The position numbers and the translations under genes were made by a program. Positions 6,437 through 11,237 of a DNA stretch of 20,469 nt are shown piece after piece. The stretch lies in the IMG/VR virus record IMGVR_UViG_2671180724_000020; one strand, 5' to 3'. Below the pieces are notes generated by a model. That model had not been told where the DNA came from. It searched no databases and was given only the letters and a program-made list of their open reading frames with translations. Positions within the stretch are counted from its first letter, which is position 1. Each line of letters starts with the position of its first letter. Source of the stretch: a virus (taxonomy: Duplodnaviria; Heunggongvirae; Uroviricota; Caudoviricetes).

Positions 6437-6630
6437 TATTATCTCCCGTATGCTTTACGCAGAAATAAGCAGGCAATATGCATGTAATTTTCACCGTATT
6501 GTGCAATAAGGCAGGCGGTCTTGTGTGATGCCATATTCTTTATAAAAGTCACAATAAAGCCTCCTGTGGATTAAGGTTGTAACAATCCCCGGCGATAAAA
6601 CCGCAATAAACGTTCAGGGCATATTTGTTG

Positions 6631-6996
6631 TTATTGCGCTAATTCTTTTTCGGCAGCAGCTTTTGTATACTCACATGCAAAACTCAGAATTTCGCTGCCG
6701 AGTGTTTTCGTTTCGTGATTACTGGACATATGTAATACCTGTGTTGCATGCAATAAATGATAAACATTTACCGCAAATGAATCAGGCTCCAGGCAAATGC
6801 CTTCGTAATTATCTTGCTGTGAGGTTGTTTCTGTCATTGCTCCTGAAGTGCATACGAGCCTGTTTTTGACAATTCTCTTTTCTCTAATCACTATATCGGC
6901 AACATCTATTGCCTTTACAACCTCCGGGAGAAGTTCCGGGTTTGTATAATCAAAGTCATCAACATGGAGAACAGTTATGTTTTCGAACTTTTTCAT
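6631..6996 (-). CDS. Hypothetical protein (121 aa) in AT-rich accessory block
   Basis: ORF with GAGGAA upstream of the ATG. Lies in a locally AT-rich segment between the leftward operon and the immunity region. Confidence 0.6.
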   Translation of the reverse strand: MKKFENITVLHVDDFDYTNPELLPEVVKAIDVADIVIREKRIVKNRLVCTSGAMTETTSQQDNYEGICLEPDSFAVNVYHLLHATQVLHMSSNHETKTLGSEILSFACEYTKAAAEKELAQ

Positions 6997-7175
6997 GGCT
7001 TCCTCAGCTGACTTATATGTCCTGCTATATAGCGAGTCTCAGAAGTGTTTTCATATTGAGACTGTTTCCGCAATGATTGATAATCAGTTACCGGATGCTT
7101 ATCCGTGTCCGGCGCACGACCACACGTAGCCGCGTGTTGGTCCCCATTTTCAATTCAGCTCTCAATGGAGGATAA

Positions 7176-7403
7176 ATGATTAACGCAGAGCAACTCGAAA
7201 AAGAGATTTCAGAACTCAAAAAAGAATTAATTTGGCACAAAGTTGCTATCTCCGCATTAATTCGTCAGGTAGTTTCACCTGAAGATAAAGTAAAGTTTAT
7301 GAAGCAGTTCTCATCTTCATCAAAGGAGTTTTTCACTGACGAGGTTCATCCAGAGGCTGGATTTTGGATCCGTCAATTATTTTCGCAAGATAAGCGTAAA
7401 TAG
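7176..7403 (+). CDS. Small hypothetical protein (75 aa), opposite strand to its neighbours
   Basis: Very good RBS (AATGGAGGATAA then ATG). Helical, Lys/Glu-rich N-terminus. Its 3' end overlaps the minus-strand gene 7333-7575 by about 71 bp. Confidence 0.5.
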   Translation: MINAEQLEKEISELKKELIWHKVAISALIRQVVSPEDKVKFMKQFSSSSKEFFTDEVHPEAGFWIRQLFSQDKRK

Positions 7404-7575
7404 CGTCATCAATACTCGCGTCGCTCTTGAATTTAAGAGCGATGCTCTTTATATCCTCTGAAATTATTACCAGATCACCATATGTTATATTTTTATTATT
7501 GTGCGCAGTGCTTTTTTGTATGAAATCAAGCAATTCACCAATGAGACAAATATGGTAAGCATCACAGTTTTTCAT
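7333..7575 (-). CDS. Small hypothetical protein (80 aa), translationally coupled to the upstream HTH gene
   Basis: Its ATG (7575-7573) overlaps the TGA stop of the HTH-XRE gene in an ATGA arrangement. The track ORF starts 2 codons earlier at a TTG. Confidence 0.5.
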   Translation of the reverse strand: MKNCDAYHICLIGELLDFIQKSTAHNNKNITYGDLVIISEDIKSIALKFKSDASIDDAIYAYLAKIIDGSKIQPLDEPRQ

Positions 7576-8033
7576 GCGCAAGTATCCCCACCTGTTGGTT
7601 TACCAGTTAACAGCCACATCGGATCGCAGCCAAGAATATTTGCCAGTGGGATAAGCATACTGATAGTTGGTTCATACTCTCCGCTCTCCCACTGGATGAT
7701 AATTTCTTCATCGAGATCGAGCAGCCTGGCGAGTTCGGCGGTTGTTAAGCCGCAGGCTTCGCGTTGGGTGCGAAGGTTAACCAGCCAGCTTTCAGGGAAG
7801 GATTGTTTTTGTTGTGCAGGAGAAGCAGCAGATAGAGCATATTCATGGATAAATTCCATTACCTCAATGCCCAGTTCCTTTGAGCGAGCACAATCCAGAA
7901 GATGGAATGTGCGTACAGCACTTAGCAAATTTGCAATATTTAATGCAAAGGAATCAAGTTCTAAGCCCTTAAGCGTAACACAGCCGCAGTTGATAAAATT
8001 AGTTGTTTCTGGAGTTGCTTTTAGTGTCTTCAT
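7572..8033 (-). CDS. HTH-XRE domain protein with an uncharacterised N-terminal domain (153 aa from the ATG at 8033)
   Basis: The C-terminal region (LRTQREACGLTTAELARLLDLDEEIIIQWESGEYEPTISMLIPLANILGCDPMWLL) is a typical XRE-family helix-turn-helix. It is the first gene downstream of the PL-like promoter at 8087-8115. Confidence 0.75.
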   Translation of the reverse strand: MKTLKATPETTNFINCGCVTLKGLELDSFALNIANLLSAVRTFHLLDCARSKELGIEVMEFIHEYALSAASPAQQKQSFPESWLVNLRTQREACGLTTAELARLLDLDEEIIIQWESGEYEPTISMLIPLANILGCDPMWLLTGKPTGGDTCA

Positions 8034-8086
8034 ATATCCGCCAACAATTTTAAATTGAATCAAATCAAGTTATAATTGATGGTGCG

Positions 8087-8115
8087 ATATTATGTTTTGG
8101 GAAACAGGCTGTCAA
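8087..8115 (-). promoter_or_regulatory. Near-consensus sigma70 promoter directed leftward (PL-like early-left promoter)
   Basis: On the minus strand: TTGACA, a 17-nt spacer, then TAATAT. ACTTGAT-type operator-like motifs, matching those in the cI-cro intergenic region, lie near the -10 side (8054-8070) and upstream of the -35 (8123-8128). Confidence 0.55.
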
Positions 8116-8144
8116 GAAAAAATTGATATCGTATATTTCAGGCA

Positions 8145-8168
8145 GAAAAAAAACGGGCAAAGCCCGTT
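8145..8168 (-). terminator. Rho-independent terminator downstream of cI
   Basis: On the minus strand: ACGGGC, loop TTT, GCCCGT, followed by a run of 8-9 T, beginning about 12 nt after the cI stop. Confidence 0.6.
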
Positions 8169-8179
8169 AAAATCAAAGA

Positions 8180-8869
8180 CTAACCAAATCTGTTTATGTT
8201 GAATGGTACTGATGAGATCACTTTAGACTGGATATAAAGCAGAGCTAACCCCTCTTTTTCGATGCTCCATGGTTGATAATTGGGGTTATCAGATAACACC
8301 ATGATTTTGCTTCCAATTTTTTGAAGCCTTTTCACGTAGCATTCTCCATCAAAACAAAATGCATAAATACCATCGCCATCAAAATAAGTTACTGTCTTAT
8401 CAAGAAAAAGAAGGTCGCCAGGTGAGATTGTGGGAGCCATACTGTCTCCTCTGGCGTTACCTATTTCTATATTTTTGAATGCCCGATTTCCAACAAGACG
8501 TCGGGCATATTCAGGATCAAGTTCTATTGAGCGCACTACATCTATCAAGTCACCACGGACATGAGTTCCATCACCGCAACTAAACTCAACATCAAGGACA
8601 TTAAATACGACGCTATCTGTTCTTGTCTGGTGTTTCTCTTGCGAAGAAAAGGTTGGTGAGGAGTCTTCACCTAAGAACCAGGATTGTGGATAACCGCTAA
8701 TCTCTGATAAATGCGCGAGCTTATCACTCCGTGGAAATGTTTTTCCTGTTGTCCAGTACTGCACTGATTGCGCACTCACACCTAACTTGCGGGCCAGTTG
8801 AGCCTGAGTCCATCCTTTTGCTTTCAGCATCGCGGCTATTCGATTTTCCGTGTTTTTGACGTTCTTCAT
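8180..8869 (-). CDS. cI: CI-type prophage repressor (N-terminal HTH, C-terminal S24 LexA-like autopeptidase)
   Basis: The N-terminus has an HTH (GWTQAQLARKLGVSAQSVQYW). The C-terminus has the S24 motifs GDSM (ARGDSMAPTISPGDLLF) and a downstream Lys (YVKRL). Divergent from the cro-like gene across an operator-bearing intergenic region. Confidence 0.9.
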   Translation of the reverse strand: MKNVKNTENRIAAMLKAKGWTQAQLARKLGVSAQSVQYWTTGKTFPRSDKLAHLSEISGYPQSWFLGEDSSPTFSSQEKHQTRTDSVVFNVLDVEFSCGDGTHVRGDLIDVVRSIELDPEYARRLVGNRAFKNIEIGNARGDSMAPTISPGDLLFLDKTVTYFDGDGIYAFCFDGECYVKRLQKIGSKIMVLSDNPNYQPWSIEKEGLALLYIQSKVISSVPFNINRFG

Positions 8870-8875
8870 GACCAA

Positions 8876-9002
8876 ATCCTGTGGGTTTCTTTACAAGGAT
8901 AAATCTTTACTTGATTTTAGTGTATTCGATCCTTTTGCAACTTGCATGTTAATTTAAACTTGATGTATTCTTGATTTATAAAGTTAATATTGGTGCTTTG
9001 TT
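8876..9002. promoter_or_regulatory. Immunity-region operator/promoter region between cI and cro (OR/PR/PRM analogue)
   Basis: 127-bp divergent intergenic region. It holds three copies of an ACTTGAT-type motif (8910-8915, 8959-8964, 8970-8975), an inverted CAAGGAT/ATCCTT pair (8894-8900, 8928-8936) and a TAATAT -10-like hexamer (8986-8991) just upstream of cro. Confidence 0.5.
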
Positions 9003-9275
9003 ATGGAAGGAAATGATTACGACAAACTTCGTGCATTAATTGCGCAAAATGCCATAGCGCGAAATCTTGGTGTGACGCCGCAAGCGGTGAATCAGTGGTT
9101 TTCAAAAAACACAATTCCTGCTCGTTTCGTTTTACGCGTATGTGAAGTAGTTGCATGGAAGGTCACGCCACATGGCTTAAGGCCAGATCTTTATCCTCAC
9201 CCTGAAGATGGAATTCCTGATTCGTTACGCAAAATTTCAAATCCAAGCTTAGCGCACACAGAGGACGAGAAGTGA
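9003..9275 (+). CDS. cro: Cro-like / YdaS-family HTH regulator
   Basis: 90-aa ORF divergent from cI. HTH region (LGVTPQAVNQWFSKNTIP) resembles Cro/YdaS-type regulators of Rac-like prophages. Very short leader. Confidence 0.7.
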   Translation: MEGNDYDKLRALIAQNAIARNLGVTPQAVNQWFSKNTIPARFVLRVCEVVAWKVTPHGLRPDLYPHPEDGIPDSLRKISNPSLAHTEDEK

Positions 9276-9345
9276 TGGTGGTGATATGAGCGAAAAAATA
9301 ACTATTAAATACGATGGGGCAACCATTTCGATTGCCCCAATCACA

Positions 9346-9639
9346 TTAGCGTTCGCTGAGAAGTTGTTGGTAAGCCTTAAAGGATGCGAACTGCATTCTA
9401 CCTTCGGCATTGATTCCAATGCCTTCGCTTGTACACCAGGTGATGAACTCGGCTGTATCCGCTTCAACTTTAATAACTCGTTGCCCGCTTCTTTCGACAC
9501 GCTTAATCAATTTTTCAGCGTCGTGTTTCCACTCGGTGTAACTGTCGGAGAGCACATCAGCATCAGTAAAAATATTTTTGAGCTCATGATACTGAATCGC
9601 ATCGCGAAACCAGAATAAACCAACGGCCTGAACTTTCAT
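9346..9639 (-). CDS. Hypothetical protein (97 aa) convergent with cro
   Basis: Excellent RBS on the minus strand (AAGGAGG 6 nt before the ATG at 9639). The fully overlapping plus-strand ORF 9286-9618 has a weaker start context. Confidence 0.55.
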   Translation of the reverse strand: MKVQAVGLFWFRDAIQYHELKNIFTDADVLSDSYTEWKHDAEKLIKRVERSGQRVIKVEADTAEFITWCTSEGIGINAEGRMQFASFKAYQQLLSER

Positions 9640-9716: not shown

Positions 9717-10466
9717 ATGTGCGGAATCTTAAAAGAATTTATCCGTAAGGAGATGGCAGTGAACACCGCAATTTTTAACGACAAAGCATCCATGACCAGC
9801 GTTGAGATCGCAGAGCTGGTGGGTAGTCAGCACTCAGATGTTAAACGTAGTATCGAACGCCTGGTTGCTAAAAACATCATCCGGAAACCGCCAATGGCTG
9901 TTTCCGAGAAAATCAATAACTTAGGTTTTAAAGTTCAATATGAGCATTACCTGTTTGAAGGAGAACAAGGTAAGCGCGACAGCATCATTGTCGTCGCACA
10001 GCTCTGCCCTGAATTCACTGCTCGCCTGGTAGATCGCTGGCGTGAACTGGAAGAACAGATCCGTAAGCCAATGAGCGAAATTGAAATGGTTGCTGCGATG
10101 GCTCTTGAAGCCGTTCGCCAACAGAAACGGATCACTCAGGTGGAAGAAAAAGTCAGCCACGTTGCTGAAACAGTCGAGCAAATTAAAAAGGGCACTATTC
10201 GTGAGGGCTATGCCGGATATCGCCAACTGAAAGCAAAAACCGGTTTGTCAGATGATAAATGCCGCAATCTGGTGAACGCCTATCAGATTCCTACAGACAC
10301 CCATGAGTTCATGACGCCGGACGGATTGTTGTCACGTCGCGCAATTGTTGCTGTGGAACCGTTTATGGCTGCTTTTTATCGGGTTATGGAGGAAGCAGAA
10401 CCGCGAGGGACTCGCTGGTATCACCCGAAAATGGGGTTATTTCAGGTTATTGGTTGGCAGCGGTGA
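9717..10466 (+). CDS. Phage regulatory / antirepressor-like protein (Rha/AntA-like N-terminal domain)
   Basis: The N-terminal motif MTSVEIAELVGSQHSDVKRSIERLV matches the short DNA-binding domain of Rha/Ant-type phage regulators. The true start may be the GTG at 9759, which has AAGGAG 6 nt upstream. Confidence 0.65.
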   Translation: MCGILKEFIRKEMAVNTAIFNDKASMTSVEIAELVGSQHSDVKRSIERLVAKNIIRKPPMAVSEKINNLGFKVQYEHYLFEGEQGKRDSIIVVAQLCPEFTARLVDRWRELEEQIRKPMSEIEMVAAMALEAVRQQKRITQVEEKVSHVAETVEQIKKGTIREGYAGYRQLKAKTGLSDDKCRNLVNAYQIPTDTHEFMTPDGLLSRRAIVAVEPFMAAFYRVMEEAEPRGTRWYHPKMGLFQVIGWQR

Positions 10467-10874
10467 AAAAAAGCCGGGAGTAACCCGGCTCACTCAACAT
10501 CAATAACGGGGAGCTGTTTCGCATAAAACGGCTCCGAAACATCCAAGAACAGTTCTAAAGATATCAGCAGCTATATGATCATTTCAAGACCAAATATTGA
10601 TTCTGCAATTTCGGGACGTTACACTGTCTCCGCACCTTATAAAGCGGGTGCCGGGGGTCGCAGCCCGGAATTGTCAACGGCGATATATGACGCGCCAGCG
10701 TCTTTTTTATCGTCCGCGCTCACGCACGCCAGAATTATGGTGGGCTGGGCAGGGGAGCCGAAAGGCTCGCCGGTCTCCGTTGACGCCGGTACTGCGAACC
10801 CTGTTCAGTCTGCCACCAGTGAGTTTCGCAGCTCCGGTGGTGGAAGTTTTCCACAGTCAACGGAGGCTGCCATC

Positions 10875-11237
10875 ATGGCTACTGTCCCAACTTCCCCATA
10901 CCTGAAAATTGAAGTTGTCAACGGCAAGGCCGTTATTTTCTCCCTGCATGTTGCCTGCCACTTTAAGCGAATGCACCAGAACATCGTTGACAAAATCGAG
11001 TATCTGAACTGCTCACGCGAGTTTTTTACCTGCAATTTCATACCGGGTACTTATCACATCTACGGTGACTCCCTGCGTGGTTATTACATCACTCTTGATG
11101 GCCTGATGATGCTTCAGCTTGGGTTAAGTCTGCGCACAATGCGGTACTACGAGAGCTGCATTGAGGCATTCCATGAAGCTGAAACCAGCCTGAATCATAC
11201 AGCTTTCCGCTGTAATCAATGGGAGGTGCGCCCATGA
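10875..11237 (+). CDS. Rha-family-like phage regulatory protein (120 aa)
   Basis: ATG at 10875 preceded by ACGGAGG. The motif AVIFSLHVACHFKRMHQNIVDKIEYL fits the Rha pattern (V.TSL.VAE.FGKRH.NVLRDI). The upstream 300 nt of the track ORF looks non-coding. Confidence 0.5.
   Translation: MATVPTSPYLKIEVVNGKAVIFSLHVACHFKRMHQNIVDKIEYLNCSREFFTCNFIPGTYHIYGDSLRGYYITLDGLMMLQLGLSLRTMRYYESCIEAFHEAETSLNHTAFRCNQWEVRP

Follow-up and report, generated by a model that had tools for sequence, protein, structure and literature searches.

In phage lambda, the early-left promoter and its operators (PL/OL) lie just past the end of the cI unit, point away from it, carry sigma-70 hexamers overlaid by repressor sites (three in lambda) and drive an operon that begins with N and runs towards xis and int. 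Four other described systems offer partial parallels for the locus considered here: the SinR/SinI (SlrR/SlrA) pairs of Bacillus subtilis, in which an XRE-type regulator with a helical domain has small neighbours with a paralogous helical domain; sieB of the Rac prophage and other morons of early operons; the transcription factor-small open reading frame (TF-smORF) modules known from linear plasmid-like phages, where an XRE-type factor stands beside an orphan small-protein gene near the repressor, the two genes being divergent and the factor activating the promoter of the small gene (Silpe et al. 2023, PMC10432266); and leaders that sequester a ribosome-binding site, such as RNA thermometers and the alternative structures of the lambda cIII mRNA. 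The locus lies in a window of 20,469 nucleotides (the whole stretch of DNA analysed, IMG/VR record IMGVR_UViG_2671180724_000020), and occupies the region downstream of a cI-type repressor gene, where an earlier note made from the letters alone had placed a leftward promoter, a helix-turn-helix (HTH) protein and two small genes. To the reading that the early-left operon of a lambdoid prophage without N begins here, a small mobile cassette having been inserted into it, we assign a probability of roughly 0.55.

On sequence comparison, the window is part of an Escherichia coli lambdoid prophage related to phiP27 and PhiR49_2: the closest phage record, PhiR49_2, is 98.8% identical over most of 6500-9300, phiP27 follows with 93% identity over 6500-7775, and complete E. 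coli genomes hold near-identical prophages. The features of the control region and of the first gene, whose product is given in amino acids (aa), are as follows.

8180-8869, minus strand: cI-type repressor gene, 229 aa (Pfam Peptidase_S24, 4e-17, and HTH_3, 4.9e-8; phrog_4, 9e-54).
8144-8168, minus strand: intrinsic terminator of the cI transcript (stem 8168-8152 of 7 pairs, 5 of them G-C, with a 3-nucleotide loop, then eight T).
8111-8127, no strand assigned: operator-like site GTCAAGAAAAAATTGAT over the -35 hexamer, with one mismatch to ATCAA-N7-TTGAT.
8087-8115, minus strand: PL-like sigma-70 promoter (TTGACA 8115-8110, 17 nucleotides, TAATAT 8092-8087; 10 of 12 consensus positions).
8064-8080, no strand assigned: operator-like palindrome ATCAAGTTATAATTGAT, covering roughly +1 to +17 relative to the promoter.
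7572-8033, minus strand: 153-aa regulator gene (ATG at 8033, stop 7572-7574; phrog_4836, 7.8e-78).
7824-7964, minus strand: N-terminal helical hairpin of the regulator, residues 24-70 (AlphaFold2).
7611-7775, minus strand: XRE-type HTH of the regulator, residues 87-141 (HTH_3, PF01381; 3.5e-11; 43.4 bits against a cutoff of 23).

The terminator and the near-consensus promoter were thus both found where the earlier note had placed them. Alignment of the spacer between cI and the HTH gene from four phages with homologous cI genes (the window, PhiR49_2, Stx2_14040 and phi467; cI ~79-98% identical) demonstrated that its terminator part has diverged beyond recognition, the terminator sequence not being kept in Stx2_14040 or phi467, and that the conserved elements are the -35 hexamer together with the ATCAATTTTT part of the site lying upstream of it (kept in all four), the -10 hexamer, and the downstream sequence CACCATCAATTATAACTTGATT. 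The palindrome at 8064-8080, the sole exact match to ATCAA-N7-TTGAT in the window, is likewise kept in the phages with related cI, and is missing from phiP27, which has a different repressor. Since the L10 gene of phiP27 encodes a near-identical HTH domain behind an unrelated upstream spacer, the palindromic sites track cI and not the downstream regulator. Sites of related sequence lie between cI and cro, at 8899-8915 and 8948-8964, and of the five matches to ATCAA-N7-TTGAT with at most one mismatch in the window, three are confined to the ~280 bp of intergenic DNA beside cI (in two regions), a clustering for which our own estimate of the chance probability is ~2.5e-5. The operator-like ACTTGAT motifs put forward in the earlier note fared less uniformly: the copy at 8064-8070 falls within the conserved palindrome, but no enrichment across the window was apparent, with six copies against 3.0 expected and a count of six being reached in 8 of 100 shuffles of the whole window. 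All six lie in 7953-8964, three of them in coding sequence and the intergenic ones being that at 8064-8070 and two in the cI-cro region.

The promoter at 8087-8115 consequently behaves like a PL equivalent, as its proposed position had implied: phages with homologous cI keep its hexamers together with both flanking 17-bp sites, and these operator-like sites differ where the cI allele differs. As in lambda, it stands just past the end of the cI unit with sigma-70 hexamers pointing away, its -35 and +1 positions are overlaid by candidate 17-bp repressor-type sites resembling those of the cI-cro region, and its operon runs towards xis and int; unlike lambda, it presents two candidate sites rather than three, and its repression by CI, which would bind both sites and keep the promoter silent in the lysogen, is inferred. 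As also anticipated, its first gene is not N but encodes an XRE-type HTH protein, and no N-like protein was found among the leftward open reading frames (ORFs) searched with PHROGs. Nor was a nutL element (boxA plus boxB) detected: the search yielded an isolated boxA-like CGCTCTTA at 7441-7434 on the minus strand, identical to the lambda boxA sequence, with no boxB hairpin. This octamer lies on the leftward strand 600 nucleotides downstream of the promoter, inside the hairpin that terminates the opposite gene; because it is expected ~0.6 times by chance in the window (our own estimate) and is accompanied by no boxB, it is probably a chance occurrence and was set aside as a functional boxA.

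Downstream of the regulator gene the following features are relevant.

6998-7567, no strand assigned: inserted cassette of 570 bp, flanked by ATGAAAAA at 7575-7568 and 6996-6989.
7333-7575, minus strand: 80-aa ORF, its start overlapping the regulator stop as ATGA (match to phrog_23054; not annotated by PGAP).
7176-7403, plus strand: 75-aa ORF behind GGAGG (match to phrog_20080; annotated by PGAP).
7418-7445, plus strand: intrinsic terminator of the 75-aa gene (12-pair stem followed by TCTTTATATC), directly after that gene and inside the 80-aa ORF.
6631-6996, minus strand: 121-aa gene (phiP27 L08; phrog_5451, 5e-83), the C-terminal domain of its product being paralogous to the regulator hairpin.

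At one related locus (L009), the regulator stop overlaps the start of the 121-aa gene as ATGA and there is no counterpart of 6998-7567, while PhiR49_2 lacks window positions 7084-7601. By this comparison, the cassette is inserted exactly between the regulator stop and the start of the next gene and carries both small ORFs, the first eight bases of the 80-aa ORF (ATGAAAAA) being the same as those with which the 121-aa gene starts at the uninterrupted junction. The 80-aa and 75-aa ORFs always occur as a pair in the cassette, whereas the surroundings of the cassette vary: it is found beside two repressor types (an S24-type CI of ~230 aa and a 128-aa HTH repressor) and beside HTH proteins of 136, 152 and 153 aa, which include at least two N-terminal domain types. 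Both the ATGA overlap of the 80-aa ORF with the HTH stop and the converging 75-aa gene, with its good ribosome-binding site and a 71-bp overlap with the 80-aa ORF, were present as the earlier note had described them, in a block that is indeed AT-rich (GC content 0.35-0.46). The module that it had read into this arrangement (regulator/effector or toxin-antitoxin-like) did not survive in that form. Most occurrences of the HTH family come without the 80-aa ORF, and at L009 the ATGA runs straight into the 121-aa gene, so that an ancestral unit of HTH gene and 80-aa ORF is not supported; no toxin, antitoxin or defence match was obtained for either small protein. Such a module could at most consist of the two small ORFs themselves. 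The terminator at 7418-7445, the promoter-like site and conserved leader described below, and the location of both small ORFs on an insertion are additions to the earlier account.

Both small ORFs look like real coding genes under purifying selection. In all ten cassette copies examined, which differ by up to ~8% in DNA, the 80-aa ORF is intact and exactly 80 aa long, and in its non-overlapping part the ratio of nonsynonymous to synonymous polymorphism (pN/pS) was 0.27 in its own frame versus 0.75-0.97 in the other five, 13 of the 26 variable sites falling at codon position 3. The 75-aa ORF likewise gave a pN/pS of 0.27, with third codon positions accounting for 13 of its 21 variable sites. 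The 75-aa ORF has been broken in three independent ways, by a frameshift in phiP27, by another in loci L012-L014, and by IS1 in L025; in this last case (L025 2637-3331, one E. coli genome) the element lies within the 75-aa gene and leaves both the 80-aa ORF and the regulator gene intact. No relatives of either small protein were found beyond the cassette copies, the 80-aa ORF occurring in the E. coli-type copies only, and neither protein gave a toxin-antitoxin, defence or other match in Pfam, NCBIfam, PADLOC or the PDB. Two possible origins for the 80-aa ORF were examined and rejected: as a frameshifted second HTH (153 + 80 aa being near the 230 aa of the commonest form of the regulator family), for which BLASTP against the 230-aa form was empty, and as a diverged paralogue of the hairpin proteins that hold the same position elsewhere, for which hhalign returned a probability of 0.2% and BLASTP nothing. 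A literature search on the L09 and L10 genes of phiP27 found nothing relevant.

The 75-aa gene has the organisation of a moron: a promoter-like site, a terminator, and absence from PhiR49_2 and L009. That terminator would act on the plus strand only, since on the minus strand the sequence after the same hairpin is GAGTATTGATG, in which there is no run of T. A comparable arrangement is that of sieB of Rac, annotated in K-12 on the strand opposite to kilR and racR, and of other early-operon morons: here too, a gene equipped with a promoter and a terminator of its own is placed within an early-left operon on the opposite strand. Further common points are an AT-rich composition, absence from close relatives and plausible expression from the repressed prophage. 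The 75-aa gene differs from sieB in that there is no sequence similarity either to that gene or to its upstream region, in its 75-aa, soluble-looking product, and in being accompanied both by an ORF that converges on it and by a conserved leader in which the ribosome-binding site is hidden. The features upstream of the 75-aa gene are given below.

7056-7084, plus strand: promoter-like site of the 75-aa gene (TTGAGA, 17 nucleotides, GATAAT; 10 of 12 consensus positions).
7085-7175, plus strand: conserved structured 5' leader of ~90 nucleotides, with three hairpins.
7091-7112, plus strand: leader stem-loop 1.
7118-7142, plus strand: leader stem-loop 2.
7143-7148, plus strand: anti-Shine-Dalgarno strand of leader stem-loop 3, pairing with AAUGGA, which overlaps the Shine-Dalgarno sequence at 7164-7169.

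The promoter-like site stops just short of the conserved leader, 6-7 nucleotides ahead of its start, and other copies of the leader have a different promoter in the same place. Folding predicted that in stem-loop 3 the sequence (U/C)CUCCAUU pairs with AAUGGAGG, the Shine-Dalgarno sequence; folding z-scores of -2.2 to -3.65 were obtained for five of six variants, and the density of variable sites was 0.043 per position in the leader, compared with 0.13-0.17 for the ORFs. It was matched in ~970 of 5426 complete E. coli genomes (roughly one in six), always unannotated and usually ~490 nucleotides from dicB, on the opposite strand and directly before a small plus-strand gene, and further copies were found in E. 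albertii, Shigella, Edwardsiella and Pluralibacter and on at least 120 IMG/VR contigs. Of 131 copies drawn from genomes and IMG/VR contigs, 61 are followed by a ribosome-binding site and an ORF, the products of which (17-104 aa) fall into 15 mutually unrelated groups; Pfam gave no match for six of the other cargos. In distant copies, the sequence of stem-loop 2 differs and the hairpin is retained, its variants forming a C-G / U.G / U-A series that fits only an RNA of the cargo (plus) strand. Those distant copies were judged from individual folds, MAFFT having misaligned their stem-loop 2 and thereby rendered RNAalifold uninformative.

From these data we conclude that the leader is probably a translational control element common to a variable small-gene slot, and apparently a widespread, undescribed structured RNA. 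In common with leaders that sequester a ribosome-binding site, its terminal hairpin would pair CUCC with the GGAG of the Shine-Dalgarno sequence; it differs from them in having no Rfam family and in its two extra conserved upstream hairpins. No Rfam match to the leader was obtained, a search of 6900-8300 at E <= 1 giving two chance-level matches elsewhere only; a relationship to the kilS/sieB upstream region of Rac was also considered and rejected, BLASTN at word size 7 giving no match. No paper describing the leader was found, nor anything relevant on an element between ydfC and dicF. The resemblance to the TF-smORF modules, namely an XRE-type factor beside an orphan small-protein gene near a repressor, is limited by the fact that the genes converge here and that the leader also occurs in prophages that do not have this regulator.

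Two sets of leader copies merit separate mention. In the Qin prophage of K-12, a remnant at NC_000913.3 1649102-1649194 (L021 2603-2695), on the strand opposite to dicB and between ydfC and dicF, keeps the promoter, stem-loops 1 and 2 and the anti-Shine-Dalgarno sequence with neither a ribosome-binding site nor an ORF, and bears no annotation. At the Edwardsiella loci L028 and L037, and at L029, the leader cargo is a proline-rich peptide of 30-32 aa (MRINQFGGTERPRPDGQVTYRPTPAPKPKK), which might be bioactive.

As to the 153-aa regulator, its C-terminal XRE-type HTH was confirmed by an HTH_3 match well above cutoff, and Foldseek comparisons of that part of the model returned P22 c2, the 434 repressor and C.AhdI with TM-scores (template modelling scores, normalised to the target) of 0.8-0.9. 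The N-terminal domain, described previously as unknown, is indeed a non-HTH domain, but that description can now be revised to a helical hairpin with paralogues nearby: AlphaFold2 predicted helices at 23-45 and 49-69 with a predicted local distance difference test score (pLDDT) of ~80, although the fold search of the model returned HTH domains only and no informative match for the hairpin. Residues 1-151 align to positions 1-144 of the 194 of phrog_4836, the C-terminal quarter of the profile being missing; the 'CII-like regulator' label of that family is an annotation, not a tested function, and no CII family was among the Pfam and NCBIfam matches of the regulator at E <= 0.1. In a large protein collection 159 homologues were found, nearly all from E. 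coli and solely named 'helix-turn-helix domain-containing protein', which share an MKTL start. The commonest form of the family, on more than 1000 contigs, is 230 aa long and consists of the N-terminal domain, the HTH, a linker and a second HTH; the window regulator is a single-HTH variant which, relative to the two-HTH gene of L009, has 231 bp absent between equivalent points of the two repeats. Across the family alignment the first HTH is near-invariant, the N-terminal ~80 residues fall into several unrelated-looking types, and the C-terminus is present with or without the second HTH. By these similarities, the regulator is a predicted DNA-binding protein of a common, unstudied E. coli prophage family (phrog_4836).

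The hairpin recurs in proteins encoded just downstream of regulator genes. Over 47 residues, positions 69-115 of the 121-aa protein share 43% identity with residues 24-70 of the regulator (E = 5e-10). The gene lying 5 nucleotides after the regulator gene of Stx2_14040 encodes a 66-aa protein that consists of the hairpin domain alone, and in phi467 the regulator gene is followed by one for a 74-aa protein of the same domain type, the next, 63-aa, protein having no detectable similarity. BLASTP joins all of these hairpin types into one family with E-values of 5e-10 to 3e-9. The family is narrow, since only two proteins, both of them HTH fusions, were recovered when 1.8 billion representatives were searched by HMMER with the N-terminal domain. 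Because paralogous hairpins are encoded just downstream, the domain may be a protein-protein interaction module, and by analogy with SinI the small hairpin proteins may modulate the regulator as SinI does SinR. Here, as there, an XRE-type regulator with a helical domain has small neighbours with a paralogous one that could titrate it; the differences are that the helical domain, which SinR has at its C-terminus, is at the N-terminus here, that the sequences are not similar, that hairpin type and partner show no strict covariation, and that a heteromer is only proposed.

Taken together, these features suggest the following sequence of events. In the lysogen, CI would occupy the 17-bp sites at -35 and +1 and thereby keep the early-left promoter silent, and the terminator at 8152-8168 would stop the cI transcript from entering the operon. 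The 75-aa gene could meanwhile be transcribed from its own promoter, gated by the leader through the hidden ribosome-binding site and ended at 7418-7445, its product being a prophage-expressed accessory (moron) protein. The 80-aa ORF, having taken over the coupled ATGA start, would be made only when the early-left promoter fires: upon induction, strong leftward transcription would yield the regulator and the coupled 80-aa protein, and the same transcript would pass antisense through the 75-aa gene, silencing it, and onward into the 121-aa gene. The 80-aa protein may perhaps be an antagonist of the 75-aa protein or a self-immunity factor, an idea supported by a single observation: of the two, it is the 75-aa gene that decays, the 80-aa ORF being retained. 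A more far-reaching version, which we regard as speculative and on balance unlikely, would make the leader an undescribed cis-regulatory RNA serving in Enterobacterales prophages as a universal, translation-gated platform for a hypervariable small-protein slot antisense to the early operon, the 75-aa protein being an effector, the PL-driven 80-aa protein its early-lytic antidote, and the regulator subject to SinI-like hairpin mini-proteins.

Three other explanations of the locus need to be weighed against the insertion of a cassette into an early-left operon. One accepts only the 75-aa gene as a real inserted moron and regards the 80-aa ORF as a functionless by-product of insertion behind an existing ATGA start. 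It would account for the identity of its first eight bases (ATGAAAAA) with the 121-aa start at the uninterrupted junction, for its missing PGAP annotation, for the want of any homologue outside the cassette, for its low-confidence structure prediction, and for the fact that it partly encodes the terminator hairpin of the opposite gene; it does not readily explain a reading frame that has stayed open at exactly 80 aa in 10 of 10 copies differing by up to ~8%, with the frame-specific pN/pS (0.27 against 0.75-0.97) and third-position excess (13 of 26) given above, and that persists in copies whose 75-aa gene carries a frameshift or an IS1 interruption. We therefore think it unlikely. An altogether slighter prospect is a type II toxin-antitoxin pair in which the HTH protein would be the XRE antitoxin and the 80-aa protein its coupled toxin, both made from a constitutive promoter under autoregulation and not from a PL that CI represses. 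The gene order and 4-nucleotide ATGA overlap are typical of XRE-antitoxin/toxin operons, the HTH is weakly similar to HipB, MqsA and other antitoxin-type models (all far below cutoffs), and toxin-antitoxin modules directly after prophage repressors are known, for example paaR2-paaA2-parE2 (PMC8630535); yet an HTH family present on more than 1000 contigs mostly does not have the 80-aa ORF and leads at L009 into the 121-aa gene, the ORF goes with the 75-aa gene whichever HTH type is present, no toxin family of Pfam, NCBIfam, PADLOC or the PDB matches it, and the operator-like sites vary with the cI allele and not with the invariant HTH.

It is also conceivable, if quite improbable, that the lysogen uses an unrepressed promoter to make the HTH protein as a second immunity repressor, which would control the antirepressor genes at 9717-11237 and have the two palindromes as its own autoregulatory sites. 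Such a role would suit a strong, near-consensus promoter insulated from cI by a terminator, as well as the Ant/Rha-type genes and the C4/isrK antisense RNA system, which would need control, and some depositors label the gene as a DicA-like repressor. Against it, the near-identical HTH of phiP27 has an upstream region that does not contain these palindromes, their half-site is common to the cI-cro region, no ATCAA-N7-TTGAT site (at most one mismatch) was found near the antirepressor genes, and the match to the DicA model amounted to 37 bits where the cutoff is 101. The reading of an early-left operon with an inserted cassette has nevertheless to be set against a number of less favourable observations. 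The match of the PL-like promoter to consensus is in itself at chance level (7 promoter-like sites in the scan, 7.5 expected from shuffles), and the promoter is taken as real because it is conserved across phages, not from its score; the cI-cro sites are poorer palindromes than that at 8064-8080, which makes the definition of the operator provisional. The 80-aa ORF is missing from the PGAP annotation, its AlphaFold2 model has low confidence (pLDDT 63, too low for a fold search), the selection estimates come from 8 sequences representing few lineages, and the functional tie between the 80-aa and 75-aa ORFs consists of their joint travel and overlap only. RNAalifold found one compensatory pair only among close leader copies. 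Finally, hairpin type and downstream small protein show no strict covariation, the 121-aa gene following either N-terminal domain type, which weakens the specific SinI-like pairing.

The remainder of the window is organised, from its left end, as integrase, excisionase and a leftward block with unassigned functions, followed by the S24-type cI gene (8180-8869, minus strand) and a YdaS/Cro-like gene (9003-9275, plus strand), and then by Ant/Rha-type genes, replication genes, a methyltransferase and two tRNAs. Two Rfam matches above gathering scores, to the isrK Hfq-binding RNA (10632-10708, plus strand, 58.7 bits) and to the C4 antisense RNA (10733-10820, plus strand, 78.8 bits), sit within or just upstream of an 'ash family' gene at 10575-11237; the pattern of matches suggests that this lambdoid prophage has an antirepressor system of the P1/P7 type, under antisense control. 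A 97-aa gene (phrog_4753) at 9346-9639 lies on the minus strand within the rightward operon, between cro and ant, and given this opposite orientation together with its own AAGGAGG and its own terminator (9339-9315, minus strand) it is a candidate second antisense moron; the leader cargo of Pluralibacter gergoviae resembles this protein by eye, no formal comparison having been made. The two tRNA genes (19472-19544 and 19628-19701, plus strand) are followed by a gene at 19802-20305 (plus strand) matching phrog_632, which is annotated as tellurite resistance; Stx phages carry tRNAs ahead of their toxin genes at this position. A near-identical prophage in E. coli TD225-C4 (L001) departs from the window left of 6436 and has, in the diverged part (L001 2572-2790), a gene annotated 'ParE family toxin-like protein'.

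Judged from sequence, the early-left control region itself is ordinary, and it is the regulator family, the cassette and especially the leader that are uncharacterised, with protein functions inferred throughout. The regulator family stands first in the early operon, in the place of N, and appears to share an interaction domain with neighbouring mini-proteins; the cassette is a portable pair of converging orphan genes, apparently under selection. Prophage accessory slots of this kind often hold exclusion or defence functions, and the leader provides a simple sequence handle for finding those prophage accessory genes that are probably expressed in lysogens.

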